Shown: positions 627 through 55,171, counted from the stretch's first letter. The stretch is DNA of 64,000 nt from an uncultured Gammaproteobacteria bacterium (GCA_964496095.1 CAZBWU010000005.1:19704-83703); one strand, 5' to 3'. Numbers and translations: made by a program. The notes: generated by a model not told the origin, from the letters alone.

Positions 627-779
627 TGTCATCCCGAGGGATCTCTGTCTCAATTGTCATTCCCGCAACAGCGGGAATCCAGATAATTTAATTGTGTATT
701 TGATCCCCGATCAGGTCGGGTATAACAACGACTGAACGGGACAGAGATTCCTCACCCCGTAAAGGGTTCGGAATGACAA
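627..779. repeat. MITE-like palindromic repeat, copy A (TGTCATCCCGAG...CGGAATGACAA), with a nested inner palindrome TGTCATTCCCGCAACAGCGGGAATC
   Basis: Shares termini and the GGGATCTCTGTC/GACAGAGATTCC core with the copies at 16628, 18927, 53089. Intergenic, no coding capacity. Ends 10 nt before the SEDS gene start. Confidence 0.7.
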
Positions 780-788
780 ATAAAAATT

Positions 789-1883
789 ATGTTCAATTTT
801 GGTAAACTATCACCCCGAACTTTTGATTGGCAGATTTTTATCTGTATAGTTTTTTTGGTTATGATTGGTTTGGTATCTGTTTATAGTGTGGACCTTTCTC
901 GTGGTTCTGAACTTTTTTATTTTAAAAAACAATTATTATCTTTTGGGATTGGTCTGGGGCTTTTTTTTACTGCTAGTCTCAGTCAACATAATCTGTGGCG
1001 CTACTTGGCCAAGTGGTGGTATTTATTTTCTGCGCTTTTACTTTTGGCGGTATTATTTTTGGGTGAGGTTATTAGAGGTACCAGAGGCTGGTTTTCTGTC
1101 GCCGGGTTTTCTTTTCAGCCAGTGGAGATGGCAAAGATCGGACTTATTTTAATGCTTGCCTATATTATTTCTCGTTTTGGTCGCAGGTTTGACCGGCCGT
1201 TATTCTTTTTTGGTACGGGTCTTGTCACTCTGGTTTTGATTGGTCTGGTAATGTTACAGCCAGATTTAGGTTCTGCTTTTTTGTTGGGCGCTATTTGGTT
1301 GGGAATGGTTTGGGCAGTCGGAGCTCGTCGCCTATATTTAGGTGGATTAGTAGTAGCTATGGCAGTATTAGCCGTTGTTGGTTGGTTTTTTTTCTTACAA
1401 GATTATCAAAAAGATCGTCTAGCAAATTTCATTGATCCTGGTCGGGATCCTTTTAATAGTGGTTACAATGTTGCTCAATCAGCGATTGCAATTGGGGCTG
1501 GTCAATTATTTGGTCGGGGGTTAGGTTTTGGTTCGCAGAGTCAGTTGCGATTTTTACCAGAAGCCCAGACAGACTTTGTTTTTTCGGTGATTGGCGAAGA
1601 GCTTGGTTTGGCTGGTGTGCTCGTAATGCTGGTTTTATTTGGTATTTTGTTTTGGCGATTTTTATTGATAATCAGAAAATCTAACGATGATTTTGTGGCT
1701 ACAGCTGCCACCGGTATCTTAATCCTGTTTTTTGTGCAGTTGCTTACTAATGTTGGGGCCAATCTTGGCCTTTTGCCTATCACTGGTGTCACCCTGCCAT
1801 TTGTCAGCTACGGGGGCTCTTCTTTGGTTATAAACCTACTCCTGGTGGGTATTTTGGAGAGTATGATCGTGAAGAATTATTGA
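789..1883 (+). CDS. SEDS-family peptidoglycan glycosyltransferase (FtsW/RodA)
   Basis: Multi-TM protein with PDLGSAFLL and the C-terminal LPFVSYGGSSLV motif typical of FtsW/RodA/SpoVE. Confidence 0.85.
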   Translation: MFNFGKLSPRTFDWQIFICIVFLVMIGLVSVYSVDLSRGSELFYFKKQLLSFGIGLGLFFTASLSQHNLWRYLAKWWYLFSALLLLAVLFLGEVIRGTRGWFSVAGFSFQPVEMAKIGLILMLAYIISRFGRRFDRPLFFFGTGLVTLVLIGLVMLQPDLGSAFLLGAIWLGMVWAVGARRLYLGGLVVAMAVLAVVGWFFFLQDYQKDRLANFIDPGRDPFNSGYNVAQSAIAIGAGQLFGRGLGFGSQSQLRFLPEAQTDFVFSVIGEELGLAGVLVMLVLFGILFWRFLLIIRKSNDDFVATAATGILILFFVQLLTNVGANLGLLPITGVTLPFVSYGGSSLVINLLLVGILESMIVKNY

Positions 1884-1945
1884 TTAGGATAGGTGGGGTT
1901 GACATTTTTTGCAAAATCCTTTAGTATTAGTCCATACAAAAATAT

Positions 1946-2302
1946 ATGTTAGAAAAAGATGGCAAGTCAGATTCTTGGAAAAAAACCTTAAAATTTATCA
2001 GTAATTGCCCAGTCTGCAAAACGGAATATAAACCGGAAGCGGTGAAATTGCTGAACAATGAAAATAATACCCAAAGTCATTTGGGACAGGATGAGTCTAG
2101 ATTTGTGCATTTTACCTGCCATAATTGTAAAACCAATTTTATGGCCATGGTGATGATGATCTCAAAAGGCATCAGCACTGTCGGTATGATTACAGATTTA
2201 AATTTTTCCGATGTTGAGAGGTTATACAAAATGCCACCATTAACAGTAGATGAATTAATAGAAGCAAGACAATTTATAAACAGTAAAAATTTTAAGTTAT
2301 AA
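1946..2302 (+). CDS. small zinc-ribbon-like protein (two CxxC pairs)
   Basis: CPVCKTEY...CHNCKTNF. No family recognised. Confidence 0.4.
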   Translation: MLEKDGKSDSWKKTLKFISNCPVCKTEYKPEAVKLLNNENNTQSHLGQDESRFVHFTCHNCKTNFMAMVMMISKGISTVGMITDLNFSDVERLYKMPPLTVDELIEARQFINSKNFKL

Positions 2303-2306
2303 GTAT

Positions 2307-3020
2307 ATGTCATTTAAACTATCAGCCACCACCCGCAATGTTAAAGGAGAAAAAATCAGAACCAGAACTGCTATTCCGGCTGTTGTTTATGGTATGGGCG
2401 GAAAAGCAACTTCAATCACAATTGGTTACGAAGATTTTGCGAAATTATATCGCGAAGCTGGTGAAGCTAGTTTGATTGATTTGTTTTTGGATGATAAAGA
2501 AGATGGTAAAGTTTTGATTCAAGACATTGCTTACGATCCAGTAAGTGACTTGATGACTCATGCTGATTTGCGCAGAATTGATATGAATAAGACTTTGACT
2601 GCGACTGTGGAGTTGCGATTCATTGGCGAAGCTTCAGTTATTAAGGAACAAGGCGGAACTTTGATGCGCAATCTTACTGAAGTTGAGGTACAATGTTTAC
2701 CAAAGGATTTGATTTCCCATATTGATGTTGATATTTCTGTTCTTAAGACTTTTGATGATTTAATTAAAGTACAAGATTTGCCAGTCCCATCTACTGTTAC
2801 TATTACAAGTCCTAATGCAGAAGATTTGGTAGCCAAAGCCACTCCAGCTATGAGTGAAGAAGAGATGAAGGCTTTGGAAGCGGTAGCTGCTCCAGTTGAC
2901 TTGAGTAAGATTGAATCTGCTGGCAAGAAGAAAGAAGAGGGTGAAGAAGGCGATGAAGCAGAAGCTGGCGCACCTGCTAAAGGCGCTGCCCCTGCTGGTA
3001 AAGATGAGGCTAAGAAATAA
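2307..3020 (+). CDS. rplY: 50S ribosomal protein L25 / general stress protein Ctc with a lysine/glutamate-rich C-terminal tail
   Basis: N-terminus MSFKL..TRNVKGEKIRTRTAIPAVVYG...ITIGYEDF matches the L25/Ctc N-terminal fold. Acidic/lysine tail. Confidence 0.8.
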   Translation: MSFKLSATTRNVKGEKIRTRTAIPAVVYGMGGKATSITIGYEDFAKLYREAGEASLIDLFLDDKEDGKVLIQDIAYDPVSDLMTHADLRRIDMNKTLTATVELRFIGEASVIKEQGGTLMRNLTEVEVQCLPKDLISHIDVDISVLKTFDDLIKVQDLPVPSTVTITSPNAEDLVAKATPAMSEEEMKALEAVAAPVDLSKIESAGKKKEEGEEGDEAEAGAPAKGAAPAGKDEAKK

Positions 3021-3054
3021 AGTTATATATCTAACAACTTTCATTAAATTAAAA

Positions 3055-3086
3055 AACAGGCTACAATGTAAAGAGCCTGTTTTTTA
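3055..3086 (+). terminator. rho-independent terminator after rplY
   Basis: Hairpin CAGGCTACAATGTAAAGAGCCTG followed by TTTTTT. Confidence 0.6.
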
Positions 3087-3101
3087 ATTATTATTAAGTC
3101 T

Positions 3102-4148
3102 ATGCCAAAAAATTATAAACTACTTTCACTGATAGCCGGCCTGCTTACTTTGTCTTGTTTTTTAATTGGTTATTTTATTGTGGGTTATTTTTCTCTTATT
3201 CAATTTTCTCAGGCTATGGCTGATAATGATTTTCTTGTTAGCGCCAAAAGGTATACTAATAGTCTAGATGGACAAGTAGTAAAAACCAAAAATGAAACAG
3301 TTTCGGCTGTGGTAGGGATAATGATTGAAACTCACCCAGATGCCCGTCCAATGATTGGATTCTCCAAAGCCAAGATTGTTTATGAAGCTCCGGTAGAAGG
3401 AAGCTTTACTCGTTATCTAGCCATTTTTGATAGCAAACAAAATGTGCCAAAAATTGGACCAGTGCGTAGTGCTCGGCCATACTTTATAGATTGGTTGCAA
3501 GAATATGGCGCTGGGCTATATATGCATTCAGGTGGTTCGCCAGAGGCTTTGAGTTTAATAAAATCTAGAAATATTTTTGATGCCAATGAATTTTATTGGG
3601 GCCAGTATTATTGGCGTGACCAAGTGAGATTTGCTCCGCACAATCTGTATACAAGTAGTGATAATTGGAGGAAAATTTTGGATAAGTATGGCAATAACAA
3701 AGAACAATTTGGTCCGGCCAAGGCTTGGAAATATACAGCTATCGTGGGTAAGACGATTGCCAGTGACAGTAAGTTAAGTATTGATTTTAATTCAAGCTAT
3801 GGCGTGATGTGGAATTATGATTCGAAGTCCTTGCTTTATGTTCGCAGTGTCAATGGCAACAAAGAAAAAGATGCCGATGGTGCCGGAGTTTTTGCTCGAA
3901 ATGTGATTGTGCAATTTACCGATGTACAGCTAATTGCTGGTGATGATAGTGGTAGAAGAACTGTTCAGACTCTTGGTGGTGGTAAAGCTATGGTTTTAAA
4001 AAAAGGAAGTATTATTAATGGAACTTGGGAGAAGAAAACTTTGACTGACCGTACTAGGTTTTATGATAAAAATCACAGAGAAATTTTACTCGCCCCGGGT
4101 AATACTTGGGTAGAAGTAGTGCCAAATGAGGCCAAAATTTCAGGTTAG
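3102..4148 (+). CDS. exported/membrane-anchored hypothetical protein, possibly DUF3048-like
   Basis: N-terminal TM/signal segment. Family assignment is from memory of DUF3048 proteins common in small-genome bacteria and is low confidence. Confidence 0.45.
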   Translation: MPKNYKLLSLIAGLLTLSCFLIGYFIVGYFSLIQFSQAMADNDFLVSAKRYTNSLDGQVVKTKNETVSAVVGIMIETHPDARPMIGFSKAKIVYEAPVEGSFTRYLAIFDSKQNVPKIGPVRSARPYFIDWLQEYGAGLYMHSGGSPEALSLIKSRNIFDANEFYWGQYYWRDQVRFAPHNLYTSSDNWRKILDKYGNNKEQFGPAKAWKYTAIVGKTIASDSKLSIDFNSSYGVMWNYDSKSLLYVRSVNGNKEKDADGAGVFARNVIVQFTDVQLIAGDDSGRRTVQTLGGGKAMVLKKGSIINGTWEKKTLTDRTRFYDKNHREILLAPGNTWVEVVPNEAKISG

Positions 4149-4993: not shown

Positions 4994-5001
4994 AACCCGG
5001 T

Positions 5002-6084: not shown

Positions 6085-6097
6085 ATTTTTTTGTTAT

Positions 6098-9230: not shown

Positions 9231-10517
9231 TTGATTTTTATGAACAAATTAGTTGTACAACGACAAAGAGTAGGACCGATCCTTGGCAGACATCCATGGG
9301 TATTTTCTGGTGCCTTGCAACATATTCCCGAAGGCTTAAAAAGTGGCGACGCCGTGATGCTTGTAAATGAAGAGGGAGCTTTTTTGGCTCATGGTTATTT
9401 TAATTCCTATTCACAAATTGCGGTACGTCTTTGGAGCTGGGATGAAAATGAAGTTATAGATGCTAAATTTTTTGAAAAGAGAATTGCGAGTGCTTATGCT
9501 ATCAGAAAAAATCTTGTTGCTAGCCCCAAAACAGACTCTTATCGTTTGGTATATAGTGAAAATGATTTGCTACCAGGACTTATAGTTGATAAATACGCAG
9601 ATTGTCTGGTCTTGCAGTTTCATACCCCAGGCATGGAAGCTTGGAAAGATCAGATTGTTGGCGCATTGAAAAAAATTGTTAAACCAAAAGGTATTTATGA
9701 AAGATCTGATGTGCGGGATCGGCAGCGTCATGTCATTGCGACGCCGAATAATTCGGCGGAAGCAATCCCATCGGATGGTAGTGCTAACAGTTGGATTGCC
9801 GCGTCGTCCCAAACCGTTGGGACTCCTCGCAATGACAAAACCGGCCTGTTATATGGCAAAGTCCCGGAAAGAATAAAAATATCCGAGAATGGTTATAAGT
9901 TTTGGGTAGATGTAATTGGTGGCCAAAAAACCGGATTTTTTCTTGATCAAAGAGATAAGCGTCAGGCGTTGACCAGATATGTCAAAGGCAAAACTGTTGT
10001 GAACTGCTTTTCTTATTCCGGCGGTTTTAGTGTTTATGCTTTGGGCGCTGGCGCCAAAAAAGTTATTAGCGTAGATGCTTCTGAAAGCGCTTTGGAACTA
10101 GCCGTAGCCAATGTAAAACTAAATAAATTTGATACCAAAAAATGCGAGTTTATCGCCGGGGACGTCAAACAATATTTGGCAGATGCTCAAGCTGAAAAGA
10201 AAAAGTTTGATGTGATAATTCTTGACCCACCAGCTTTTGTCAAAGATAGGCATAAGGTAGCCGAAGGTATGATAGGCTATAAAAAAATAAACGAAGCAGC
10301 TCTGCGAATTTTATCACCAGACGGTATTTTAGTCTCTGCTTCTTGTTCAGCTCATGTATCACTCCTTGATTTTCGGCATATGCTGACTGAGTCTGCTGGT
10401 CGCGCTCGCCGGACTTTGCAGGTGCTTGAGACCTATACGCACGGCATAGACCATCCCGAATTGACTGCTTTTACCGAAGGGGAGTACCTGAAGTGTTTGT
10501 TTGCAAAAGTAGCATAA
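9231..10517 (+). CDS. class I SAM-dependent 23S rRNA (m5C) methyltransferase, RlmI/RlmK-like, with an N-terminal PUA-like region
   Basis: PUA-type N-terminus. Rossmann methyltransferase core (VVNCFSYSGGFSV, IILDPPAF). Typical RlmI length. Confidence 0.65.
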   Translation: MIFMNKLVVQRQRVGPILGRHPWVFSGALQHIPEGLKSGDAVMLVNEEGAFLAHGYFNSYSQIAVRLWSWDENEVIDAKFFEKRIASAYAIRKNLVASPKTDSYRLVYSENDLLPGLIVDKYADCLVLQFHTPGMEAWKDQIVGALKKIVKPKGIYERSDVRDRQRHVIATPNNSAEAIPSDGSANSWIAASSQTVGTPRNDKTGLLYGKVPERIKISENGYKFWVDVIGGQKTGFFLDQRDKRQALTRYVKGKTVVNCFSYSGGFSVYALGAGAKKVISVDASESALELAVANVKLNKFDTKKCEFIAGDVKQYLADAQAEKKKFDVIILDPPAFVKDRHKVAEGMIGYKKINEAALRILSPDGILVSASCSAHVSLLDFRHMLTESAGRARRTLQVLETYTHGIDHPELTAFTEGEYLKCLFAKVA

Positions 10518-16627: not shown

Positions 16628-16720
16628 TGTCATCCCGAGAGGGGTTAACACCCCCGAGGGATCTCTGTCCGGTTACCGTTGATTGAGACAGAGATTCCTC
16701 CTTCGTCGTCGGAATGACAA
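16628..16720. repeat. MITE-like palindromic repeat, copy B
   Basis: TGTCATCCCGAG-GGGGTTAACACCCCC-GAGGGATCTCTGTC ... GACAGAGATTCCTCC...GGAATGACAA. About 90% identical to copy C. Ends 13 nt before the pgk ATG. Confidence 0.75.
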
Positions 16721-18873: not shown

Positions 18874-18926
18874 TTTGAAAACATTGTGATATACTAGATT
18901 TAATAAACTAAAGCTTAACTTTTTAT

Positions 18927-19018
18927 TGTCATCCCGAGTGGGGTAAACACCCCCGAGAGATCTCTGTCCGGTTACTGTTGATTGGGACAGAGATTCCTCC
19001 TTTGTTGTCGGAATGACA
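18927..19018. repeat. MITE-like palindromic repeat, copy C
   Basis: Near-identical to copy B. Ends 13 nt before the eno ATG. Confidence 0.75.
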
Positions 19019-19031: not shown

Positions 19032-20279
19032 ATGCGCATAAAACAAATCATGGCGAGAGAAATTCTTGATTCCCGTGGTAATCCTACGGTAGAGGCAAAG
19101 GTAGTCTTGGAAAATGGTCTTAGTGCCATTGCCAAAGTGCCGTCAGGGGCTTCTACCGGCACGCACGAAGCCTTAGAGTTACGAGATGGCGGTAAACGTT
19201 ATGGTGGTAAAGGAGTCTTGAGAGCTGTAAAAAATGTTAATACAATTATCGCTAAATCAATTGTTGGGATGGAAGTAGAAGAGATAGAAAAAATAGATGC
19301 CAAGATGTTGTCACTTGATGGTACAAAAAATAAATCCAAACTTGGCGCTAATGCAATTTTGGCAGTATCGCTCTCTGTTGCTCGAGCTGGAGCAATGTCA
19401 GTCAAGTTGCCTTTATATAAGTATATTAGACAAGTTTATAAAATAGATGAAAAGAATTTTCGCCTGCCTGTGCTGGCTATGAATATTATCAATGGTGGCA
19501 GACACGCAGACAACGGCTTGTCTATCCAAGAGTTTATGATTTTACCAAAGCACAAACTTTTGCGAGAGCGAGTGCGTATGGGTTCGCAAATTTTTCATGC
19601 CTTGGCCGGATTGTTGAGTCAAAAAGGTTATGCGACTGGCGTCGGTGATGAGGGTGGTTTTGCGCCTGAATTATTGAATAATGAAAGAGGCTTGCAATTG
19701 ATTATGGAAGCTATTAAATTAGCCGGCTGGGTGCCAGGCAAGGATGTATTTTTAGGGCTTGATATTGCCGCCTCTGAATTTTATCGTCATGGTAATTATT
19801 ATTTCATGAATAAAAAGCAAGGTTGGTCTGCCGGTAAAATGATAGATATTTTCAAACAATGGATTAAGAAGTATCCAATTATTTCTATTGAAGATGGTTT
19901 GTCCGAGGACGATTGGGCAAATTGGCAAATTTTAACAAAAGAGTTGGGCGGTAAATTGGCTTTGGTTGGCGATGATTTATTTGTGACAAATGTCGATAGG
20001 ATTGCTCGAGGTATTAAAGAAGGTGTGGCCAATACGGTTTTAATTAAAGTTAACCAAATTGGTACACTATCTGAAACCATGGCTGCCATCAAATTGGCTC
20101 GTCAAAATAAGTATCAAATTTTTATTTCTCATCGTAGCGGTGAGACCGCCGATACTTTTATTGCCGATTTGGCGGTGGCGGTAAATTCCGAATTTATCAA
20201 AACCGGATCAATGTCCCGTTCCGAAAGAGTCGAAAAATATAACAGATTGATGGAGATAGAAGAAGAACTGGGAATGTAA
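19032..20279 (+). CDS. eno: enolase
   Basis: AREILDSRGNPTVE N-terminus. SHRSGETED-like motif (SHRSGETAD). Length 415 aa. Confidence 0.95.
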   Translation: MRIKQIMAREILDSRGNPTVEAKVVLENGLSAIAKVPSGASTGTHEALELRDGGKRYGGKGVLRAVKNVNTIIAKSIVGMEVEEIEKIDAKMLSLDGTKNKSKLGANAILAVSLSVARAGAMSVKLPLYKYIRQVYKIDEKNFRLPVLAMNIINGGRHADNGLSIQEFMILPKHKLLRERVRMGSQIFHALAGLLSQKGYATGVGDEGGFAPELLNNERGLQLIMEAIKLAGWVPGKDVFLGLDIAASEFYRHGNYYFMNKKQGWSAGKMIDIFKQWIKKYPIISIEDGLSEDDWANWQILTKELGGKLALVGDDLFVTNVDRIARGIKEGVANTVLIKVNQIGTLSETMAAIKLARQNKYQIFISHRSGETADTFIADLAVAVNSEFIKTGSMSRSERVEKYNRLMEIEEELGM

Positions 20280-20282: not shown

Positions 20283-20392
20283 TGTCATCCCGAGCGAGCC
20301 CTTAAGGGCCACGAGGGATCTATCCAAGAAAAATTTTGTTAACAGAAAGATTCTCCGCGGAGTTTGTACCCTTTAGGGTGTTCAGAATGATA
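20283..20392. repeat. MITE-like palindromic repeat, copy D (divergent subfamily)
   Basis: TGTCATCCCGAGCGAGCCCTTAAGGGCCACGAGGGATCT...GGGTGTTCAGAATGATAA. Its reverse-complement-like partner is copy G. Ends 10 nt before the gpmI ATG. Confidence 0.65.
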
Positions 20393-20402: not shown

Positions 20403-21953
20403 ATGAATAAATTAAAAACAACTTTGCTTATAATTGTCGATGGTTGGGGAGTTGGTAATACCAAAGACCCAGGCAATCCGGTGACGCCAAAAACCGCGCC
20501 TAATTATTTTGCGTTTCTAAAAAAATATCCAAATTCAAAATTGGAAGCCAGTGGCGAAAGCGTTGGGTTGTTTAAAGGCCAAGAAGGCAATAGCGAAGCT
20601 GGGCATCTTAATTTGGGAGCCGGAAGAGTGGTAAAACAAGATGCTTTATATATCTCCGAGTCAATTAAAGACGGGTCTTTTTTTAAAAATAACGCCTTTC
20701 ATCAAGCAATTCATCATGTCAAAAAATACAAAACCTCGGTGCATCTGATGGGTTTATTATCCAATCATAACAGCGCGCATTCTACGCCGGAGCATCTTTA
20801 TGCTTTGTTAGAATTATTAAATCAAGAAAAAGTAAAAAATGTTTATTTACATTTATTTACTGATGGTCGAGACTCTGGTCAATATGAAGCGAGCAAGCAT
20901 CTTCGTTTATTAGAAAAGCATTTGCATGGTAATGAAAAAATAGCGACAATTATGGGGCGTTTCTATGGTATGGATAGAAATAAAAACTGGGATAGGACCA
21001 AGTCTGCTTATGAAGCGCTAGTTTTGGGCAAAGGATTTAAAGCTATTAGCCCGGCCGAAGTTTTTCGCAATGCCTATAATAAAAAAGACTCCGATGAGTA
21101 TATTGAGCCAAGTATTATTATTGAAAAAGGTAAACCGGTGGCAACAATAAAAAATAACGACGCTGTTTTCTTTTTCAATCTTCGCAGTGACCGCTCTCGT
21201 CAGCTTACCAAAGCTTTTATCCAGCCAAATTTTAAACAAATAAATCAAGGGGCTTTTGTGCGCGCCAAACAGCCAAAAAATATTCGTTTTGTAGCTTTGA
21301 CTGATTTTGGTCCGGATTTGCCAAATATATTGACCGCTTTTCCAAGTCGTGATATCCAAAATGGTTTAGTGCAGACATTATGTCCTAGAAAACAATTGTA
21401 TGTTGCTGAATCCGAAAAATTTGCTCACGTTACTTATTTTTTAAACGGCGGTTATGCCCAGCATTTTTGCGATGAGAATTGGGTTAAGATTGCTTCGCTT
21501 GATGTAAAAAATTATGCGACCAAGCCGGAGATGAGCGCGGACAGATTGGCCGACTATGTAAGCGTGGCTTTAGAGGCCGGACAGTATGATTTTATTGCGA
21601 TGAATTTTGCTAATATGGATATGGTTGGTCACACAGGTGATTTTTCTGCTGGACAAAAAGCAGTGACTGTTGTTGACGCAGCCATTGGTAAAATTGTAAA
21701 ATCCTTATTAAAAAATAAAGGTCAAGGTATTATTACGGCCGATCATGGCAATATTGAAGTAATGATAAATCCGGAAAGCGGAGAGCCAGACACTGAACAT
21801 TCGGTCAATCCTGTGCCATTTATTTTGATTAACAGTTTTGTCAAAACGCCAAAAAAATTACCTGACGGCAAATTGGCCAACGTGGCGCCAACAATTTTGA
21901 AAATGATGGGAATAAAACAGCCTGCTGAAATGACTGCTAAAAGTTTAATTTAA
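20403..21953 (+). CDS. gpmI: 2,3-bisphosphoglycerate-independent phosphoglycerate mutase, paralog 1
   Basis: DGWG, GNSEAGHLN (phospho-Ser), FTDGRD, ADHGN and MVGHTG motifs of the iPGM/alkaline-phosphatase superfamily. Confidence 0.85.
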   Translation: MNKLKTTLLIIVDGWGVGNTKDPGNPVTPKTAPNYFAFLKKYPNSKLEASGESVGLFKGQEGNSEAGHLNLGAGRVVKQDALYISESIKDGSFFKNNAFHQAIHHVKKYKTSVHLMGLLSNHNSAHSTPEHLYALLELLNQEKVKNVYLHLFTDGRDSGQYEASKHLRLLEKHLHGNEKIATIMGRFYGMDRNKNWDRTKSAYEALVLGKGFKAISPAEVFRNAYNKKDSDEYIEPSIIIEKGKPVATIKNNDAVFFFNLRSDRSRQLTKAFIQPNFKQINQGAFVRAKQPKNIRFVALTDFGPDLPNILTAFPSRDIQNGLVQTLCPRKQLYVAESEKFAHVTYFLNGGYAQHFCDENWVKIASLDVKNYATKPEMSADRLADYVSVALEAGQYDFIAMNFANMDMVGHTGDFSAGQKAVTVVDAAIGKIVKSLLKNKGQGIITADHGNIEVMINPESGEPDTEHSVNPVPFILINSFVKTPKKLPDGKLANVAPTILKMMGIKQPAEMTAKSLI

Positions 21954-21958
21954 AATTT

Positions 21959-23536
21959 ATGTCTTATAAACCAGTTGTGCTTGCAATTATGGATGGTTGG
22001 GGAGTAGCGCCAGACTCAGATGGTAATGCCATTACCAAAGCCAGCACACCCAACTTCACCAAGTTTGTTAAAAACTATCCCACCATGACGCTTCATGCTT
22101 CAGGCAATGAGGTGGGTTTGTTATTTGGCGAGATGGGAAACTCGGAAGTTGGACACTTAAATATTGGCGCTGGCCGAGTCTATTATCAAAGTTGTCCGAG
22201 AATTAACATGGCTATTGCTGATGGTAGCTTTTTTGAAAACTCAGCTTTGCTTTCAGCGATAGAAAAAGTAAAAAAAAATAATTCTAGTTTACATTTAGTT
22301 GGATTGATCGGTTCGGGTAATGTGCATGCTAGTAGCGATCATCTTTATGCCTTGCTGGCGTTCTGTAAAAAACAAAATTTAAGCAAAAATGTTTTTATTC
22401 ATGCTATTTTGGATGGGCGTGATGCCTTGTATAATTCCGGTCGTGATTTTGTTTTAGAATTGCAACAAAAAATGACTGAATTAAAAGTTGGTCAGATTGC
22501 ATCTTTGTCTGGTCGTTATTATGCGATGGATAGAGATAATCGTTGGGATAGAGTAGAGAAAGCCTACAGAGCCATTGCCGAGGGTAAGGCCGATAGATAT
22601 AGCGACAATCCTATCCAAGCGATAGACCAATCTTACGAGCAAAAAAATTACGATGAAGAATTTATCCCGACCGTTATTACAAATAAAGACAAGCCTCTAG
22701 CCACTATTGTTGGTCAGGATGCTGTGATTGTCTTTAACTTTCGACCAGATCGCGCGCGTGAATTAACCCAAGCTTTTTCAGTGCCGTCTTTTAATAAATT
22801 TCCTGCTACTTATTTAAAAGATTTATCGGTAGTGACGATGACCGAGTATGCCAAAGATTTGCCAGTGTCAGTCGCTTTTGCGCCGATTGTGGTGCATAAT
22901 TCTTTGGCCGAAGTTATTAGTAAGGCTGGCCTTAAACAAATGCATATTGCCGAAACTGAAAAATACGCTCACGTCACTTTTTTCTTGAATGGCACAGTCG
23001 AAGAACCTTTTGTGGGAGAAGATAGAAAACTCGTGCCATCGCCACGTGTTTCTAGTTATGACCAGCTACCGGAAATGTCTGCATTAGAAATCACCAAAGA
23101 AGCCAAAAAAATAATCGATAGCGGTAAATACGATTTTATAGTTTTAAATTTTGCTAATCCTGATATGGTAGCTCACACCGGCAATTTGACCGCGGGTATC
23201 AAGGCGTGTGAAGTGACTGATAAATGTTTGGGAGAGTTGGCAGATCATACGCTTGCGCAAAATGGTGTGATGCTTGTGACTGCCGACCATGGCAATGCCG
23301 AAGAAATGGCCAATTTGCAAACCACGGAAATGGATAAAGAACACTCAACTAATCCTGTGCCTCTTATTATTGTGGGCAAAGATTTTATGGGGCAAGCTGG
23401 GCTGTCGGGTGATGCGCCTGAAGACGACTTAAGTCTCATTCAGCCAGTGGGAGTGCTTGCAGATGTGGCACCGACAATTTTGAAGCTTTTAGATATTCCA
23501 CAGCCGGAAGATATGACTGGACAGGCTTTGATTTAG
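21959..23536 (+). CDS. gpmI: 2,3-bisphosphoglycerate-independent phosphoglycerate mutase, paralog 2 (tandem duplicate)
   Basis: The same motif set (DGWG, GNSEVGHLN, LDGRD, ADHGN, MVAHTG). Roughly 40% identical to paralog 1 by eye. Confidence 0.8.
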   Translation: MSYKPVVLAIMDGWGVAPDSDGNAITKASTPNFTKFVKNYPTMTLHASGNEVGLLFGEMGNSEVGHLNIGAGRVYYQSCPRINMAIADGSFFENSALLSAIEKVKKNNSSLHLVGLIGSGNVHASSDHLYALLAFCKKQNLSKNVFIHAILDGRDALYNSGRDFVLELQQKMTELKVGQIASLSGRYYAMDRDNRWDRVEKAYRAIAEGKADRYSDNPIQAIDQSYEQKNYDEEFIPTVITNKDKPLATIVGQDAVIVFNFRPDRARELTQAFSVPSFNKFPATYLKDLSVVTMTEYAKDLPVSVAFAPIVVHNSLAEVISKAGLKQMHIAETEKYAHVTFFLNGTVEEPFVGEDRKLVPSPRVSSYDQLPEMSALEITKEAKKIIDSGKYDFIVLNFANPDMVAHTGNLTAGIKACEVTDKCLGELADHTLAQNGVMLVTADHGNAEEMANLQTTEMDKEHSTNPVPLIIVGKDFMGQAGLSGDAPEDDLSLIQPVGVLADVAPTILKLLDIPQPEDMTGQALI

Positions 23537-24681: not shown

Positions 24682-24857
24682 GAATTTTGACTTGTTCTGT
24701 TAGACAGCTAAAAAATCTGAATAACAGCCTATATTAGCAGTATTTTAAAGGTTTGTCAAATATAGATAGGCAGCCATTTAAAGATGATATTTTCGTCTAA
24801 AAACTCGAACGCCCCGGCTTGTGGCCGGGGCTTCGAGCGTTGTCGTTGCCCCTTCAA

Positions 24858-25283
24858 CTACGGCGGCGGGGATGACCACAGGTCATCCCCAGTTATCGGG
24901 TCCTTCTCCCCGCTCGGGAAGTAGAGGATCTTGCCTGACTTCTCCTCCCGACCACGCCTGGAAGGGAGGGGGCGGAAGATTTCTTGCCGCCCGTGGAGCC
25001 ACTTGCCCGACGGGCAAAGTAGCCCAACGGCAGGACCATTGCAGTTCCCCCGTCGGCTTGTGTCCTCCTTCCCGTCAGGCCCGACCCACTCGCTTCTGCA
25101 GTTGCAGTAGCAGGTGGAGGGCGGGCCGCAGGGCGGCGACAGTACCGGCTCGTGGTCGCGGTGCTTGAAGACGACGATCTCGGTGGGGTTGGCAAGGGCC
25201 TTCTCCTTCGTGGTGTGGCAGTCGTGGACCACCACGCCGACAGTCAGAAGAATAGCCCCGACGATGGCGATGATTTCTTTCAT
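24858..25283 (-). CDS. small Cys-rich protein with an N-terminal signal anchor, encoded in a GC-rich island
   Basis: Only frame in the island with an ATG, a hydrophobic N-terminus (MKEIIAIVGAILLTVGVVV) and a downstream hairpin terminator (GCCCCGGCTTGTGGCCGGGGC at 24808-24832). Frame choice is uncertain because high GC yields long ORFs in several frames. Confidence 0.35.
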   Translation of the reverse strand: MKEIIAIVGAILLTVGVVVHDCHTTKEKALANPTEIVVFKHRDHEPVLSPPCGPPSTCYCNCRSEWVGPDGKEDTSRRGNCNGPAVGLLCPSGKWLHGRQEIFRPLPSRRGREEKSGKILYFPSGEKDPITGDDLWSSPPP

Positions 25284-25664
25284 TGTATCTAGCCTTCCCG
25301 CCTATTGGTGGAGGTGTGAGACACCAACAGGCGTATCAAAAATCGTTAAAATTTCTAATACGCATGTTGATGTCTTTCGCTACCTTTTAACAACGCTCTT
25401 TTGAAATGGGTATCTGCCTATTATATTAGGCTTATTACCACTTTCTCAATCGCCTATATGCCGTAAGCATAAAGACGATTGTTAAAAACAGTAAAATTTG
25501 TTAGTTAATTCAAGACTTTATCATCTTATACGGGATTTGTCAATCTTCTCCTTTTCTGTTATTATTTATCTAAATCTATAACATTTATAGGGGCCTTGCC
25601 CATATAATCTCATTTGCTCGAAAATGTCTCGACAAGTCAGACATTTTACTCACTCATTTCGATT

Positions 25665-30252: not shown

Positions 30253-30294
30253 CTTTACCTATACTTTTTGTCACCAAAAAGTATCAAAAAAGTG

Positions 30295-30385
30295 TTGGGG
30301 TGGCAGAACTCCCGCCAGAGGCGGGCAGGCGCCTTTGTACTAAAGCTCCTTGTCTGCCTTGGGCGGAAAACAGCTGCCACCCCAA
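30295..30385. repeat. long palindromic element between tyrS and argS
   Basis: TTGGGGTGGCAG...CCCGCCAGAGGCGGG...CTGCCACCCCAA. Outer 12-bp stem enclosing an inner hairpin. Confidence 0.5.
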
Positions 30386-30419
30386 ACCCCACGTACCGTT
30401 TTCAAAGTATAATTAAACT

Positions 30420-40701: not shown

Positions 40702-41846
40702 CCCTGTTAAATCCGACTAAGGTCGGTCTGCCGCAAGGCAGGAAATAATCAAGTTAAGCTGGAACCACTTTCTGCATAACTTCGTTAGGGGTTTTATACC
40801 CCAAACACTTCCGTGGTCTGTTATTCAATTTTTCCTGTATCTCATAAATATCTCTATCAGTCAGTTTGTCCAAGTCTGTGCTTCTAGGTAAGTAGTGTCG
40901 TATTAACTTATTAGCATTCTCAACCCCTCCCTTTTGCCACGAGGCAAAAGGATCACAGAAGTATGTTGTAATACCATACTCTTTTTGTATCTCCATATGT
41001 TTGGCACCTTCGGTGCCATTATCAAAGGTAATGGTTTTAAACAATTCACCTGGCAATGATTCGATACTTCTGATTAAAGCATACTTAGTCTCTTCAGCGG
41101 TCTTGTTTATCACCTTATGTATTCGTATTAGTTTAGACTTTCTCTCTGATTGGACTGACAAGATGTTCTTTTGTTTAGAGAAGATAACACTGTCACTTTC
41201 CCAATCGCCATACCTTATTCTAGCACCAACGACCTCTGGTCGTTGGTGAATGGATTTTCGCTCAGGTATGCGTAATTTACCGCTTTTTCTAGTATGCTTT
41301 TTCTGTCTTTTTGTCTTACCTTGCCTTAGGTATTTGTATAACCCTTCATACCGACCGTCCTTGTTATATATGTAATGATAGATACTTTCATGGCTGATGG
41401 TTTGTTTATGACCACTCTCCTTCAAATTACCGGCAATCACATTTGTTTATGACCACTCTCCTTCAACTTACCGGCAATTACATCTGGACTCCATTCTTTT
41501 ACCAACCCCTCAATCACTGTTTGTTTTAACTGTGGGTATTTATCTAACTTACCTCTACGTTGTTTGTGTTGTCTTCTTTCAAACATCCACTGTGCTGTAT
41601 CGGCTCGGTATCTCTTTCTATCACCACTACCATTTTTAGTGATTTCTTTGCTCAACGCACCGTGAGTTCTCCTCATTATTTTGGCTATATCTCGAAGGCT
41701 CATCTTAGTTCTAAGCCAATATTCCAGCATCTGTCTCTCGTAAAACCTAAAGTCATTTGACATATGTACCACCTTTATGGATAAAGCCGTATTTTACCAT
41801 TAGGGTGGTTCTAGTAGTTTAGATTATTGCCAGAATTTAACAGGGT
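40702..41846 (-). mobile_element. IS30-family insertion sequence (about 1.15 kb) with 12-bp terminal inverted repeats ACCCTGTTAAAT / ATTTAACAGGGT
   Basis: IRs at 40702-40713 and 41835-41846 bracket an IS30-type transposase (N-terminal HTH, C-terminal DDE with the ...WQKGGVENANKLIR... block). Confidence 0.75.
40754..41772 (-). pseudogene. IS30-family transposase split into two ORFs (41437-41772 and 40754-41440) by a 41-bp tandem duplication
   Basis: Imperfect direct duplication TTGTTTATGACCACTCTCCTTCAA(A/C)TTACCGGCAAT(C/T)ACAT at 41402-41442 and 41443-41483. The peptide IAGKLKESGHKQ is encoded at the end of the upstream ORF and again at the start of the downstream ORF. Confidence 0.75.
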
Positions 41847-42676: not shown

Positions 42677-42777
42677 TGTCATTCCGACCGAAGTGGAGGA
42701 ATCCCTTAAACACGGTATTTGCAATTACATAGTTTAAGGGATCCCTCGACTCGGGAAAAGCCTCGCTCGGGATGACA
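42677..42777. repeat. MITE-like palindromic repeat, copy E (inverted orientation, variant core)
   Basis: TGTCATTCCGACCGAAG...GGAGGAATCCCTTAAAC...GTTTAAGGGATCCCTCG...CTCGGGATGACA. Ends 23 nt before the gpsA ATG. Confidence 0.7.
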
Positions 42778-49894: not shown

Positions 49895-49929
49895 ATTCAG
49901 AAATAAAATAAATAACTTTAGTTTGATTT

Positions 49930-50700: not shown

Positions 50701-50714
50701 GGTTATAATGATTT

Positions 50715-51143: not shown

Positions 51144-51147
51144 AAAT

Positions 51148-53073
51148 ATGTCAGACGAAGAAAAAGTACAACCAAATTTGGTTGGTGCTAAGAAAAATTA
51201 TATAAAGAAAGCGCTTGTGGCTATTGGCGCTATTTTGATTTTAGTAGCTGTATTTTTTGGCGTTTCGTTTGTTTACGGTAAAGTCTATAAGGATAAAGTT
51301 TTCCCCGGAGTTTATTTGGGACAGTATCATGTAGGTGGAATGACTCAGATAGAAGTCCGAGACATGGTTGAGAATTTTAATAATAGAATTGCCAAAGAAA
51401 GTTTGGATTTTAATTTCAAAAAAGATGATCAGTCTATTAGTTTTAAACTGGATGTTATTTCAGCTGAGGATAGTTCTGTAGAAATGGTAAAAGTAAACAG
51501 TGAGACTACTGCCGCCAAACTCTTGGCTGTAGGCCGACAGGATGGTTTTTGGAACAGTTTATGGCAACCGTTATATTATCGTTTGATTTCTAATCGTTTT
51601 GATTCGGCTGATGTTGTTCTTGAAGACAAGCTTATCTCAAACTTGCAGAATTATATGTTGGCTTTTGGCAATCCGCCTCGCAATGCCAATATTAAAATTA
51701 CCGACTTGATGCCGCTGTCTTATACTATAGAATCGGAAAAAAGTGGTTTTATTTTTGACTACGATGAATTAAAAAATAAAATAGTAAGTCAAATCTCAGA
51801 ATTATCGCTCAAGCCAATTGCTATAACTAAAAAAGAATTTAAACCGGATGTTGTGGTGTCTGATTTAGAACCACTCAAAAGCAAGTTGGCTGAAGTTTTA
51901 AATTATGGCAATTTAGGATTAAATTATACTGATCCTCAAACAGCGGTAAAACGTGACTGGAGCATTGGTCCAACTATTTATACCGATTGGCTGGAAGTGC
52001 GAAAAGAAAACGGTGAGCCGATTTTTGCCTTAAACAAAGAAAAAGTAAAAACCTATTTAGAAACCATAGCTCCATTTGTAAATACTCCAGCCAAAGACGC
52101 AAAGTTTGTGATGGAAGGGGAAAAAGTCAAAGAGTTTCAAGCAAACCAGTCAGGGTTAAGTTTGAATGAAGAAAAGACCTACCAGGATCTTGATTCTGTT
52201 TTTAGAGATAGAAATTATCGTCCGGCTGATTTGGCCAAAACAGTCACTGTCTCTGTAGATATTGTTGAGCCAAATATTGTCATGGCTAATATCAATAATC
52301 TCGGTATTATGGAAAAAATAGGTACAGGCTACTCTACCTTTAAAGATAGTCACACCAATAGAATCAAAAATATTGCTAATGCTGTAAAAAGATTAAATGG
52401 TGTTTTGATAAAACCAGGTGAAGAATTTTCTGCCAATAAATATGCTGGTCCATATACCAAAGAAAATGGATTTTTACCGGAACAAGTAATCAAAGGCAAT
52501 GAAATAAAGCCAGAAATTGGTGGGGGTATGTGTCAGATTGGGACGACTTTGTTTAGGACCGCGATGAATTCCGGTATGCCCATTACCGAACGTCGTAATC
52601 ATTCCTTGGTAGTTGGTTACTATGCCGATCCAGTTAACGGTAATCCTGGCACGGACTCTACGCTTTACGAGCCAAGCGTCGATTTTAAATTTATGAATGA
52701 TACCGGTAATTACTTGCTTTTACAGACTTCAATTGATTATGCAAAACAACAATTGGTGTTTACCTTGTGGGGTAAAAGCGATGGTCGTAGTGGATCCTAT
52801 ACTCATCCAATTGTCAGTAAATGGATACCAGCAGGCGAACCTCAAAATATTGTCTCCAATACTTTGAAACCAGGAGAAACAAAATGTCAGGCTGCATTCC
52901 GTGGGGCGGTTGCTTCTTTTGTCTATACTCGTTTTACTTCTACGACTGAAAAAATAGAAAGAGTCTTCGATAGTTATTATAGGCCGTTGCCAAAAATTTG
53001 TATGGTCGGCGCTTCTGCATCTACCAGTACTCCTGGTTCTGATGTGCCTTTGGACTTGGGAGAAGGGAATTAG
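51148..53073 (+). CDS. VanW domain-containing protein with an N-terminal TM anchor
   Basis: VanW core GGGMCQIGTTLFRTAMNSGMPITERRNHS. Confidence 0.7.
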   Translation: MSDEEKVQPNLVGAKKNYIKKALVAIGAILILVAVFFGVSFVYGKVYKDKVFPGVYLGQYHVGGMTQIEVRDMVENFNNRIAKESLDFNFKKDDQSISFKLDVISAEDSSVEMVKVNSETTAAKLLAVGRQDGFWNSLWQPLYYRLISNRFDSADVVLEDKLISNLQNYMLAFGNPPRNANIKITDLMPLSYTIESEKSGFIFDYDELKNKIVSQISELSLKPIAITKKEFKPDVVVSDLEPLKSKLAEVLNYGNLGLNYTDPQTAVKRDWSIGPTIYTDWLEVRKENGEPIFALNKEKVKTYLETIAPFVNTPAKDAKFVMEGEKVKEFQANQSGLSLNEEKTYQDLDSVFRDRNYRPADLAKTVTVSVDIVEPNIVMANINNLGIMEKIGTGYSTFKDSHTNRIKNIANAVKRLNGVLIKPGEEFSANKYAGPYTKENGFLPEQVIKGNEIKPEIGGGMCQIGTTLFRTAMNSGMPITERRNHSLVVGYYADPVNGNPGTDSTLYEPSVDFKFMNDTGNYLLLQTSIDYAKQQLVFTLWGKSDGRSGSYTHPIVSKWIPAGEPQNIVSNTLKPGETKCQAAFRGAVASFVYTRFTSTTEKIERVFDSYYRPLPKICMVGASASTSTPGSDVPLDLGEGN

Positions 53074-53088
53074 TTGACCATTATCATT

Positions 53089-53260
53089 TGTCATCCTGAG
53101 TGGGGTTAACACCCCCGAAGGATCTCTGTCTGTTTTGTTCGTTGTCATTCCGAACGAAGGAGTTTTTACGACGGAGTGGAGGAATCCCTTAAACTTGGTT
53201 TTTGCAATTATGATGTGTAAGGGATCCTTCGACTCCGCTACGGCTCCGCTCAGGATGACA
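53089..53260. repeat. MITE-like repeat, composite copy F: left half of a B-type copy (53089-53130) joined head-to-head to a full inverted E-type copy (53144-53260)
   Basis: TGTCATCCTGAGTGGGGTTAACACCCCCGAAGGATCTCTGTC, then TGTCATTCCGAACGAAGG...GGAGGAATCCCTTAAAC...GTAAGGGATCC...CTCAGGATGACA. Confidence 0.7.
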
Positions 53261-53900
53261 GAAAAAAATCCACCCCCACCTCAGTAAAGAGATGGGGGTG
53301 GTTTAATTTTATTGGAGGAAAGAAACTTCCCTCCTGAACCGCACCCAAGAAGATGTATTAAAGATGAAAACGAGCCGAAGCCTGTTTGTCCCTCTAACAC
53401 ATCTCCATGCTTGTCGTGGATACGGGATGATACATGTTAGTCTTACTAGTAACTCTATCATGCACTACCCGTTTCCAGACTTGCTAATGTGCGCTTGTGT
53501 CTAATTATTAAAGTATTGTATTTTTGCCTCGTAGTAGTACCGTTTTAGGGGTTCATAACTCTTGTGGCGACTTTGCTTTTTAGACAACTGCGAATTATAC
53601 TATAAATTAATAAATTTGTCAAGGGTATGGAGGGGATAAGACCATTTTTTTGGCTAATTTAAGCGGAAATAGTACTAAAGAATATTATTGACAAAGCTTA
53701 ATTTTTATGACATACTCTGTTATTCGATAATTAAGCGAATAAATAGCTCTTTAAAATTCGATATGGTTCTTCGGTGCGAATAGAGCTTCGTTTATCATTT
53801 GAATATGGTAGTAGGAGTTCTATTCGCACTATAATTACAATCTCTCCTCGGGTATGCCGAAGAGGGATCTCACCCGAATTGAAAAACTGGAGGAGGTCGT

Positions 53901-54224
53901 ATGAGCAACAAGGAAGGGCCGCCTAAAGGGTGGAAAGAGGGTGTCTTCGAGCAAATCGATGCCGAGGAGGAAGATGATGCGCTGGATCGATGGGACAGAG
54001 GCCTGCCGCTTACAGCAGCACAAGAGGCCATTGTCCAGCGGTATAGGACTATGGTGCACAGGATGAGAAGTCTCCCCCCTGTGGAACCGCCTGTTGGATG
54101 GGAGGCGCGCGCTCGCGCCCGGTTCCGCAACGCTCGTGCCCGCGAGCGCCGCCGCATGCTGGCCGTGTGCGCTGTTCTCGTCTTCATCGCCGTTGCGGCG
54201 GCATTCGTGGTGGTCGGCCGTTAG
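53901..54224 (+). CDS. small tail-anchored membrane protein encoded in a GC-rich island
   Basis: GGAGGAGG Shine-Dalgarno 4 nt upstream. Acidic N-terminal domain, an RARARFRNARARERRR basic stretch, then C-terminal TM MLAVCAVLVFIAVAAAFVVVG. GC-rich codon usage unlike neighbouring genes. Confidence 0.4.
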   Translation: MSNKEGPPKGWKEGVFEQIDAEEEDDALDRWDRGLPLTAAQEAIVQRYRTMVHRMRSLPPVEPPVGWEARARARFRNARARERRRMLAVCAVLVFIAVAAAFVVVGR

Positions 54225-54377
54225 ATCGTCGTCACGACGGGAATCGGAGAATCATGTCCACGCTGGGCCACCACGGTCGTGAGATCGAGCTGGCCTGCGT
54301 CCGAAGAGGCGTTGCACTTGCTCAGTGCGCGCCTCACTCCGAATATTTTTTGTACTTTGTAAAAAAGATTGAGGAAT

Positions 54378-54410
54378 AAAAAACTATCCTTCTGTGGATA
54401 GTTTTTTATT
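54378..54410. terminator. bidirectional rho-independent terminator between the GC island and clpP
   Basis: AAAAAACTATCC-TTCTGT-GGATAGTTTTTT. Confidence 0.6.
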
Positions 54411-54423
54411 TTGTAGTTTGTTT

Positions 54424-55023
54424 TTATTTTTCAATCACCTTATCAATCAATCCGTAAGCCAAAGCTTCCTCGGCGCTCATAAAGTTGTCTCTATCAGTAT
54501 CTTTTTCTACCTGCTCAAGCTTTTTGCCAGAATGTTTGGACATTATTTTATTTAAATTATCTTTTATTTTTAAGATTCTTTCCGCGCGGATTTTAATATC
54601 ACTCGCTTGTCCTTCCATTCCACCCATTACTTGGTGGATCATAATTTCGGCATTAGGCAAAGCAAAACGTTTTCCTTTAGCGCCGGCATTAAGTAGAAAC
54701 GCGCCCATGCTAGCAGCCATACCAATACAAATAGTACTGACATCTGGTTTGATATATTGCATGGTGTCATATATTGCCATACCAGCAGTTACTGATCCGC
54801 CAGGGGAGTTGATGTACAACTTGATATCTTTTTCTGGGTTTTGGTTTTCCAAGAATAACAATTGGGCGATAATAACATTGGCGACATTATCATCTACTTG
54901 TGTACCCAAAAATATAATTCGATCTTGGAGTAAGCGAGAATAAATATCATAAGCGCGTTCACCGAAGGTAGTTTTTTCGATGACGGTTGGGATGAGGTAT
55001 TGGGATTTGATTTCTTCTTTCAT
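54424..55023 (-). CDS. clpP: ATP-dependent Clp protease proteolytic subunit
   Basis: [15 protein letters not shown]. Catalytic Ser in GMAASMG. His in MIHQ. 199 aa. Confidence 0.9.
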
Positions 55024-55060
55024 ATTGTTATTATTAAGAATTTAGAATATAGGTTACAAC

Positions 55061-55171
55061 TGTCATTCTGAACACCCTAAAGGGTATAAACTCCGTGAAG
55101 AATATTTCCGTTAGCAAAACTTTTTCTCGGAAAGATCCCTTGTCGCCCTTGAGGGCTCGCTCAGGATGACA
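55061..55171. repeat. MITE-like palindromic repeat, copy G (D-type subfamily, oriented toward clpP on the - strand)
   Basis: CTGTCATTCTGAACACCCTAAAGGG...GGGCTCGCTCAGGATGACA. Lies in the clpP 5' region, 38 nt from the start codon. Confidence 0.65.

Follow-up and report, generated by a model that had tools for sequence, protein, structure and literature searches.

The 64,000-nucleotide stretch analysed here (GCA_964496095.1 CAZBWU010000005.1:19704-83703, one strand; hereafter the window) carries eight copies of a palindromic repeat of about 100 nt, of the general form TGTCATYCYGA...GARGRATC. Each copy is an inverted pair of hairpin units, and units of the same kind bracket small nuclease genes of the ssn type in related genomes. 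In Neisseria, the NTS repeat (CGTCATTCCCGCGMAVGCGGGAATCYRG) is bound and cut by SsnA, a 94-amino-acid (aa) single-domain GIY-YIG protein (PMC11893778). The window repeats are probably gene-less, head-to-head pairs of the recognition hairpins of such Ssn-type cassettes, that is, derivatives resembling REPINs or miniature inverted-repeat transposable elements (MITEs).

The repeats are inverted pairs of hairpin units

The terminus 12-mer TGTCATCCCGAG, allowing up to 2 mismatches, matched the window 17 times against 2.2 expected, a count reached by 0 of 100 dinucleotide shuffles. The degenerate 11-mer TGTCATYCYGA, allowing up to 1 mismatch, likewise gave 17 matches against 3.1 expected. An earlier note on this sequence had listed seven copies (A to G), all of which are real, with their termini in place and counts far above chance, but it had overlooked an eighth, at 9731-9837. 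The internal hairpins that it quoted are present, and its three subfamilies hold by pairwise identity: copies B and C share 89% identity over 104 nt, E and F2 (the second part of the composite copy F) 79% over 97 nt, and D and G 86-87% in inverted orientation.

Each unit is built from an unpaired TGTC tag, a 5-bp stem (AT-YCY with RGR-AT), a conserved GA...GA with the potential for tandem G.A pairing, an apical hairpin free in both sequence and length, and an unpaired C. Two units face each other over a spacer, and the first 8-10 spacer bases are also inverted repeats. When IMG/VR was searched for both termini 68-98 nt apart, at least 79 contigs were recovered, and their common plan is TGTC-AT-YCY-GA-(variable)-GA-RGR-AT-C-(spacer)-G-AT-YCY-TC-(variable)-TC-RGR-AT-GACA.

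The ends of the element had been described as simple terminal inverted repeats. They are instead the outer arms of two separate hairpin units. Covariation was scored in the 97 heterodimers, those with unlike outer arms, among 135 dimers. In 84 of the 97 the left outer triplet complements the left inner arm, against 2 in which it complements the other half's inner arm; for the right outer triplet the figures are 92 and 0. Each half thus forms a hairpin by itself, its outer arm complementing an arm of that same half, and two such hairpins in inverted orientation make up the element. In the copy that lies within an rlmI-like gene, all four arms have changed together, from ATYCY/RGRAT to ATTGC/GCAAT.

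A census covered 390 units, drawn from the window and from 120 metagenome loci. The 5' stem is followed by GA in 303 of them, and the 3' stem is preceded by GA in 282, both of these counts being upper bounds because about a third of the units were chosen by a pattern that fixes GA. C follows the palindrome in 324. The free apical part makes the units vary in length between 22 and 74 nt; apices range from a GCGNAGC mini-hairpin to a long GC-rich hairpin or a hexamer expansion, and from as few as 3 nt to beyond 20 nt. Head-to-head pairs number 116, and 108 of these span 54-181 nt. All window units carry TGTC except the right unit of copy D (TATC), and of the 15 window units found automatically, 14 have C after the palindrome, the left unit of copy G being the exception. 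Among the viral contigs, L038 (4157-4259) and L075 (10480-11244) carry (CCCTGA)n in the 5' arm and (GAAGGG)n in the 3' arm of a unit hairpin, parallel expansions that keep the GA-interrupted stem.

The same units bracket ssn genes in related genomes

Judged from its sequence, the window organism is a Candidatus Magasanikbacteria-like bacterium of the Candidate Phyla Radiation (CPR); Magasanikbacteria form part of the Parcubacteria group within Patescibacteria/CPR. The window enolase (19032-20279) shares 86% identity with its counterpart in Candidatus Magasanikbacteria bacterium RIFOXYD1_FULL_40_23 (L157) and 70-76% with those of other Patescibacteria metagenome-assembled genomes (MAGs), and the window and L157 share gene order across about 21 kb. 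The earlier note's assumption of a CPR origin is thereby borne out. The closest relative is L081, whose enolase is 94% identical to the window's. L081-L083 and L086-L088 are MAGs titled 'uncultured Gammaproteobacteria bacterium' that are syntenic with Magasanikbacteria/Patescibacteria genomes at 60-94% enolase identity, and from this comparison their titles look mislabelled.

A metagenome scan with the window unit type (TGTCATYCCGA...GAGGRATCTCTGTC) returned at least 120 contigs, many of them from 0.1-0.2 µm groundwater fractions, and 2 among the 120 matches listed carry an ssn homologue beside the unit. At one locus (L195, the same as L296) a unit ends 4 nt before the start of a 98-aa GIY-YIG open reading frame (ORF), and an inverted unit begins 3 nt after its stop codon. 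The encoded protein, P0121, is the NCBI 'GIY-YIG nuclease family protein [Patescibacteria group bacterium]'; among its homologues at 60-65% identity are two paralogues from Ca. Magasanikbacteria RIFOXYD2_FULL_41_14, and further ones carry Magasanikbacteria and Doudnabacteria labels. At each of the five independent CPR loci (L289, L291/L292, L293, L294, L296) head-to-head TGTC units tightly bracket ssn. The CPR products are single-domain GIY-YIG proteins of 96-99 aa that match PF01541 and are 45-49% identical to the gonococcal SsnA orthologue, the gene of which sits among 12 NTS copies in 1.5 kb. Y6, Y17 and E64, residues at which mutation abolishes cleavage by SsnA (PMC11893778), are invariant among them. 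NCBIfam holds no model for the CPR Ssn proteins, and their only solved relative is the UPF0213 protein 1zg2.

A second set of loci has a similar layout. The IMG/VR contig L071 carries a unit, then a 98-aa GIY-YIG ORF and then a dimer. Five independent loci, L071 included, encode this protein or close homologues; they appear to be Verrucomicrobial, judged from one named homologue (P0060). A TGTCATTCTGAGCGRAGCGAAGAATCTCTC unit stands 40-85 nt upstream of ssn in 5/5 of these Verrucomicrobia-like loci, and units lie just downstream in 4/5. Over both the CPR and the Verrucomicrobia-like sets, the gene between the units encodes a GIY-YIG protein in 10/10 loci examined. A search of the viral contigs for relatives of the Verrucomicrobial Ssn returned the query locus only.

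Some further features of these contigs were noted. In the Magasanikbacteria contigs (L289 2957-3338 and 3353-4858; L293 2942-3352 and 3361-3945) one ssn cassette lies directly upstream of comEC, the gene of the competence channel, and another upstream of ruvA. The position beside comEC is suggestive, since SsnA modulates Neisseria transformation, and may be coincidence. In L294 (3334-3651) a second GIY-YIG ORF of 80 aa directly follows the first ssn cassette, and after it come canonical NTS-like units (TGTCATTCCCGCCGGAGCGGGAATCCAG) paired head to head; ORF and dimer may form a further nuclease/repeat pair in tandem with the first. Dimers of the window's kind occur in at least 79 putative viral contigs (L002-L080, IMG/VR), for example on either side of tail or tape-measure genes in L019 (1055-2490) and L053 (2886-4765), and read-through ORFs in the viral contigs begin with repeat-encoded peptides. 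The genes between the paired elements in the phage contigs L019 and L053 were considered as nucleases and rejected, being tail or tape-measure genes.

Window copies correspond to cassettes without the gene

The L289 cassette reads ...GAGGGATCTCTGTCC-ssn-GGACAGAGATTCCTC..., and window copies A, B and C have the same sub-terminal bases. When the cassette ends of L289 were aligned with the window, 70/74 bases matched in copy B and 71/75 in copy C. A second ssn paralogue in the genome of L289, L291, reads ...GAGGGATCCCTTACACT-ATG...ssn...GGTTTAA-GGGATTCCTCC..., and here it is copies E and F2 that have the same bases. Aligned with the 367-nt L291 cassette, the reverse complement of copy E matched at 84/90 bases, the ATG and TAA of ssn included, and about 290 nt of the ORF are missing. 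Copy E appears to derive from an L291-type ssn cassette by internal deletion. No D/G-type cassette was present among the fetched loci, in which only one short unit match, in L215, was found. The earlier suggestion of an amplified non-autonomous element is supported: gene-carrying counterparts share its termini and sub-terminal bases, and L157 is without four of the window copies. Short dimers can be traced base by base to ssn cassettes minus the gene, as would be expected of miniature derivatives of an autonomous element.

Gain, loss and in-frame copies

In the syntenic L157 the orthologous sites of copies B, C and D and of the rlmI copy are empty. One L157 spacer, whose counterpart in the window has a different sequence, holds an E-type copy with 81% identity to F2. 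At the site orthologous to copy C, L081 (1104-1206) has a different palindrome of about 100 nt, with TACCC...GGGTA arms around an A/T-rich hairpin, which appears to belong to another repeat family.

Target-site duplications of 1-9 nt were looked for in 248 dimers, and no length rose above the control range; the 2-nt class, the only one to exceed the control mean, numbered 19 against a mean of 12.6 and a control maximum of 22. The lack of a target-site duplication excludes a classical DDE-type MITE and fits elements that are hairpin- or single-strand-based.

The eighth copy (9731-9837) is a head-to-head dimer with ATTGC/GCAAT stems that lies in frame in an rlmI-like ORF (9231-10517), which is intact at 428 codons. 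Its termini are the co-varied TGTCATTGCGA...TCGCAATGACA, and the encoded peptide reads ...HVIATPNNSAEAIPSDGSANSWIAASSQTVGTPRNDK.... In an alignment with Escherichia coli RlmI (PDB 3c0k), residues 3-164 and 204-422 of the query correspond to 4-165 and 174-393 of the chain, so that about 36 element-encoded residues replace an 8-residue inter-domain linker. The rlmI-like orthologue of L157 has a short linker in place of the insert. In L157 itself a 74-nt dimer (18903-18976) stands in frame in the valS orthologue (peptide ...IVILNGVKNPLTSKREGSFAKAQDD...), and in L289 a unit cluster (2362-2483) stands in frame in a LeuRS-like ORF. Palindromic elements inserted in frame in the protein genes of a reduced genome are known from Rickettsia, as Rickettsia palindromic element 1 (RPE-1). 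As with RPE-1, where an in-frame palindrome is tolerated in surface loops or linkers of essential proteins, the copies in rlmI, valS (L157) and the LeuRS-like gene (L289) are accommodated in coding sequence; RPE-1 is, however, a different and longer sequence family without a known Ssn link.

Relation to described repeat families

The earlier note could match the repeats to no named family, which proved wrong: they fall beside the CGTC/TGTC-tagged repetitive extragenic palindromes (REPs; PMC3733652) and the Ssn-related motifs (SRMs; PMC11893778). A literature search for 10-mers of the termini found unrelated primers only.

SsnA cuts single-stranded DNA only, a few nucleotides upstream of its motif, and does not bind RNA; cleavage depends critically on the GTC 5' of the palindrome and binding on the C 3' of it, and the loop is dispensable (PMC11893778). 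Such motifs are found near 71% of ssnA homologues, and an Ssn has been shown to bind and cut its cognate single-stranded repeat sequence-specifically for Neisseria and Wolbachia pairs only (PMC11893778). The NTS-ssnA-NTS arrangement has been likened to an insertion sequence, its transposition being a hypothesis (PMC11893778). Window units have GTC directly 5' and C directly 3' of the palindrome, and their TGTC and C are thus exactly the positions critical in SsnA biochemistry. With the SRMs (NTS/dRS3) they share the unpaired (C/T)GTC tag, a palindrome starting with AT, the unpaired 3' C and a sequence-free apex. Their CPR relatives share the repeat-ssn-repeat layout with a GIY-YIG gene of about 95 aa, so that a flanked ssn homologue is found in the same lineage (5/5 CPR loci). 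Canonical NTS-like units occur in Magasanikbacteria as well (L289 4791-4860), and a unit nested in copy A is one base off. The window family differs from the SRMs in its 5-bp stem, its GA...GA, its open-ended apex, its mostly head-to-head dimers with spacer ends that match the cassettes, and its CPR host, and cleavage of its units is suggested by analogy.

The CGTC-tagged REP superfamily is defined by an unpaired CGTC (often TGTC) tag, a stem that nearly always starts A-T, T-A, and a short unpaired tail (PMC3733652). Its members form mostly head-to-head dimers, often heterodimers, with spacers of 20-100 nt, some of them structured, and they occur in frame in genes, including those of tRNA synthetases and RNA-modification enzymes, encoding peptides such as VIPAKAGI, SFPRKRES and DSRFRGND (PMC3733652). 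Rickettsia RPE-4 and RPE-6 and Neisseria dRS3 belong to it, and no dedicated transposase or associated gene was found (PMC3733652). Window units share the tag, the A-T, T-A stem start, the tail, the predominance of head-to-head dimers and the in-frame copies (rlmI; valS in L157; the LeuRS-like gene in L289). The families CGTC-1 to CGTC-4 have a continuous stem of 8-9 bp and a loop of 4-5 nt, which the main window units lack. Only the 27-nt unit nested in copy A (655-681, plus strand; TGTCATTCCCGCAACAGCGGGAATCCA) has this structure, with an 8-bp stem and a 4-nt loop (TGTC-ATTCCCGC-AACA-GCGGGAAT-CCA). It translates to VIPATAGI, folds as DNA at -9.0 kcal/mol (z -4.7), is NTS-like in form and reads as a textbook CGTC-1 unit. 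The CGTC-REP survey differs from the present case in that CPR is absent from its five listed phyla, and here ssn lies inside the dimer in relatives.

The window family is accordingly a relative of the SRM/CGTC-REP system that lies outside the published definitions. What is new against those definitions is the short stem with GA...GA, the open-ended apex and a clear cassette-to-miniature relationship, and the system is extended to CPR.

A proposed mechanism

If the repeats are recognition-hairpin pairs of Ssn-type cassettes, an Ssn encoded elsewhere in the genome would bind the unit hairpin in DNA made single-stranded by replication, repair or uptake. Each strand of a dimer, when single-stranded, would present one unit in the cleavable orientation, and the enzyme would nick that strand a few nucleotides to the 5' side of TGTC, so that the two nicks of a dimer would fall on opposite strands, each just beyond one end of the element. 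Repair of these nicks by host functions could spread or maintain copies, and would make the repeats hotspots of single-strand cleavage; candidate routes from a nick to a new copy are template switching, nick-induced repair synthesis and recombination. By analogy with SsnA, we infer that Ssn may mobilise the repeats.

A wider proposal is offered tentatively, and we hold it with much less confidence than the relationship to ssn cassettes itself. The cassettes could be autonomous mobile elements of a mechanistically new class, guided by hairpins in single-stranded DNA, nicked by a 98-aa GIY-YIG protein and leaving no target-site duplication, with the 90-170-nt dimers as their MITE or REPIN equivalents. 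Several paralogous nuclease/repeat pairs would then co-exist in CPR, colonising the spacers of core operons and inserting in frame in essential genes.

Evidence against this reading and alternative explanations

Several results weigh against the Ssn reading. Isolated units with short apices are not predicted to be stable as DNA (z about 0 against shuffles), and folding of single units is significant only for long GC-rich apices or the canonical nested unit. The whole element, on the other hand, folds well as DNA through pairing of the outer arms and the central stem (z -3.7 and -4.9). The X...X'...X...X' layout permits both the unit-hairpin and the whole-element fold. Given the unstable folding of short-apex units alone and the better folding of the whole element, it is covariation and analogy that speak for the unit hairpin, predicted energy giving no support by itself. 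The published SRM pattern, HGTCWYN(0-2)YYVSBRHN(0-5)WNVSBRGN(0-2)RNCYNB, had 0 matches in the window, where Markov controls average 0.09. Its positive controls, the gonococcal NTS and L289 4791-4860, match; unit B-right fails the pattern and the nested unit 655-681 misses it at one loop position. Since the pattern finds the gonococcal NTS yet nothing in the window, the main family lies outside the published definition. To our knowledge, a nicking GIY-YIG enzyme has no established way to move DNA, and we know of no report of transposition by an ssn cassette. No ssn gene or remnant was found within the 64-kb window, and no ssn gene in about 330 kb of CPR enolase loci; the searches used tblastn probes, hidden Markov models (HMMs) from alignments A1 and A2, and the CPR Ssn proteins. 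Marginal ssn HMM matches, such as L084 306-632, were dropped for want of Pfam support. Finally, the closest pairs of copies are only 79-89% identical, which gives no sign of a very recent burst, and the window copies may be relics.

The last two results bear on the alternative that survives best, namely that the repeats are immobile relics of a decaying ancestral expansion, their cognate Ssn gone, and now serve as neutral spacer DNA or as recombination substrates. The divergence of the closest pairs, the lack of ssn within the window, the left unit of copy A without its apex and the degenerate terminus of copy D are all in keeping with it. Presence and absence of copies differ, however, even between syntenic relatives, and one or two ssn cassettes persist intact in related genomes. 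Despite diverged apices and spacers, 15 of about 18 units retain the whole core of tag, stem, GA and C, which suggests continued constraint. We consider it unlikely that the repeats are wholly immobile.

The earlier note had also raised a structured-RNA family. Under this explanation the hairpins would work at the level of the transcript, for instance by stabilising mRNA, ending transcription or regulating translation of the glycolytic and other housekeeping genes downstream of them. Given the very short spacers in co-directional gene runs, the copies are almost certainly transcribed; whole elements fold well as RNA (z -2.7 to -6.7), and within the window subfamily members share their orientation with respect to the flanking genes. 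Yet the two strands fold about equally, with similar energies where both were folded, and one mismatch per strand, in different stems, means that neither is favoured. The CPR-type sets show no orientation bias relative to transcription (6:10 and 4:2), and the 20:6 ratio at viral loci probably reflects related contigs. Rfam, searched over the window at the gathering threshold and at E<=1, returned only 16S rRNA and tRNA-Leu and nothing on the repeats. Some copies lie in frame inside ORFs, and the conserved bases are the unpaired tag and tail, which are relevant to a nuclease of single-stranded DNA that does not bind RNA. The RNA explanation is unsupported by these results, and we judge it improbable, though the co-transcribed hairpins may have some secondary effect on RNA.

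The repeats might also be REPINs mobilised by a REP-associated tyrosine transposase (RAYT), an IS200/IS605-type Y1 HUH enzyme, as happens in Pseudomonas and enterobacteria. REPINs are built in the same way (PMC3116915, PMC3337134): inverted hairpins with a spacer between them, a conserved unpaired tetranucleotide on the 5' side of each and no target-site duplication. In the REPIN-RAYT system (Bertels and Rainey 2011) the likeness extends to a non-autonomous unit of two inverted REP hairpins, a flanked single-copy gene and a presumed hairpin substrate in single-stranded DNA. The tag there is GTAG and not TGTC, though, and the enzyme a Y1 HUH transposase with covalent intermediates as opposed to a GIY-YIG nickase. 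Neither a GTAG tag nor a flanked Y1 gene was found in our case; in all 10 loci examined the gene between the units encodes a GIY-YIG protein and not a Y1 transposase, and no tyrosine transposase flanked by CGTC-type repeats was found in the REP survey (PMC3733652). A RAYT origin is thus very improbable. The least probable explanation, to which we give almost no credence, is a classical MITE, which would have its source in a DDE-transposase insertion sequence and use its terminal inverted repeats to move by cut-and-paste, for although the ends are inverted repeats of about 11 nt and the elements are 90-170 nt in size and present in multiple copies, no duplication of 1-9 nt flanks the ends in the 248 dimers, the ends pair preferentially within their own half of a two-hairpin structure, and the full-length counterpart encodes only a 98-aa nuclease.

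Implications

The reading of the repeats as gene-less pairs of Ssn recognition hairpins joins two lines of work. CGTC/TGTC palindromes were catalogued in 2013 without a gene, and in 2025 their Neisseria form proved to be the target of a new single-strand-specific nuclease; the window extends this link. A very widespread family, with members in CPR, Verrucomicrobia-like contigs and at least 79 contigs of IMG/VR, joins the same system though the published pattern misses it. Genome-reduced, DNA-scavenging CPR bacteria keep at least one nuclease/repeat pair, and the repeats extend into essential genes. In practice, the family flags spurious ORFs (peptides VIPSE..., CHSERSEES... and ...RMT) and a source of assembly breaks in CPR MAGs. 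By analogy with SsnA, it may also provide natural nuclease/site pairs of differing specificity for single-strand DNA tools.

Positions of the copies and other features of the window

The seven copies listed earlier sit in short spacers among housekeeping genes, beside ftsW, pgk, a SIMPL-family gene, eno, iPGM, ndk/gpsA, a vanW-like gene, clpP and a DHH-family gene. Together the eight elements amount to about 940 nt, or 1.5% of the window. Copy A (627-778) is a head-to-head dimer with a left unit at 627-649 that lacks an apical hairpin, a right unit on the minus strand at 744-778 and the central stem CTCTGTC/GACAGAG. The head-to-head dimer of copy B (16628-16719) has its units at 16628-16665 (plus strand) and 16691-16719 (minus strand) and lies directly upstream of pgk. 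Copy C (18927-19018), also a head-to-head dimer, ends 13 nt upstream of the eno start codon. The eno-iPGM spacer is filled by copy D (20283-20392), a head-to-head dimer of the D/G type that starts 3 nt past the stop codon and ends 10 nt short of the next start codon; its right terminus is degenerate (TATCAT). Copy E (42677-42777), a head-to-head dimer of the E/F2 type, lies between ndk and gpsA. Copy F is composite: F1 (53089-53126, plus strand) is a solo unit of the B/C type (TGTCATCCTGAG-TGGGGTTAACACCCCC-GAAGGATCTC) that adjoins F2 (53143-53260), an E-type head-to-head dimer downstream of the vanW-like gene. Copy G (55061-55171) is a D-type head-to-head dimer, inverted relative to D, between the minus-strand clpP and the DHH-family gene.

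Copies F and G flank clpP together with a stretch of about 1.1 kb (53261-54423) between copy F and clpP. This stretch holds two overlapping ORFs of about 105 aa on opposite strands, neither with a Pfam match. A GC-rich, near-perfect long hairpin of 97 nt (GGGGTGGCAG...CTGCCACCCC; -57.7 kcal/mol, z -6.05) stands at 30292-30388, in a spacer where L157 has an E-type dimer instead; it had no Rfam match and no copy among the fetched loci. Between a minus-strand gene and valS, about 930 nt (24682-25613) with a GC content of 44.5% against about 38% contain only short overlapping ORFs without a Pfam match, gave no Rfam match and did not align to the syntenic L157. Two tandem iPGM paralogues of 516 and 525 aa occupy 20403-23536, with DNA stretches that are 72-79% identical. 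At the junction of two minus-strand ORFs, a 41-nt tandem duplication (41401-41482) is 95% identical and in perfect register.

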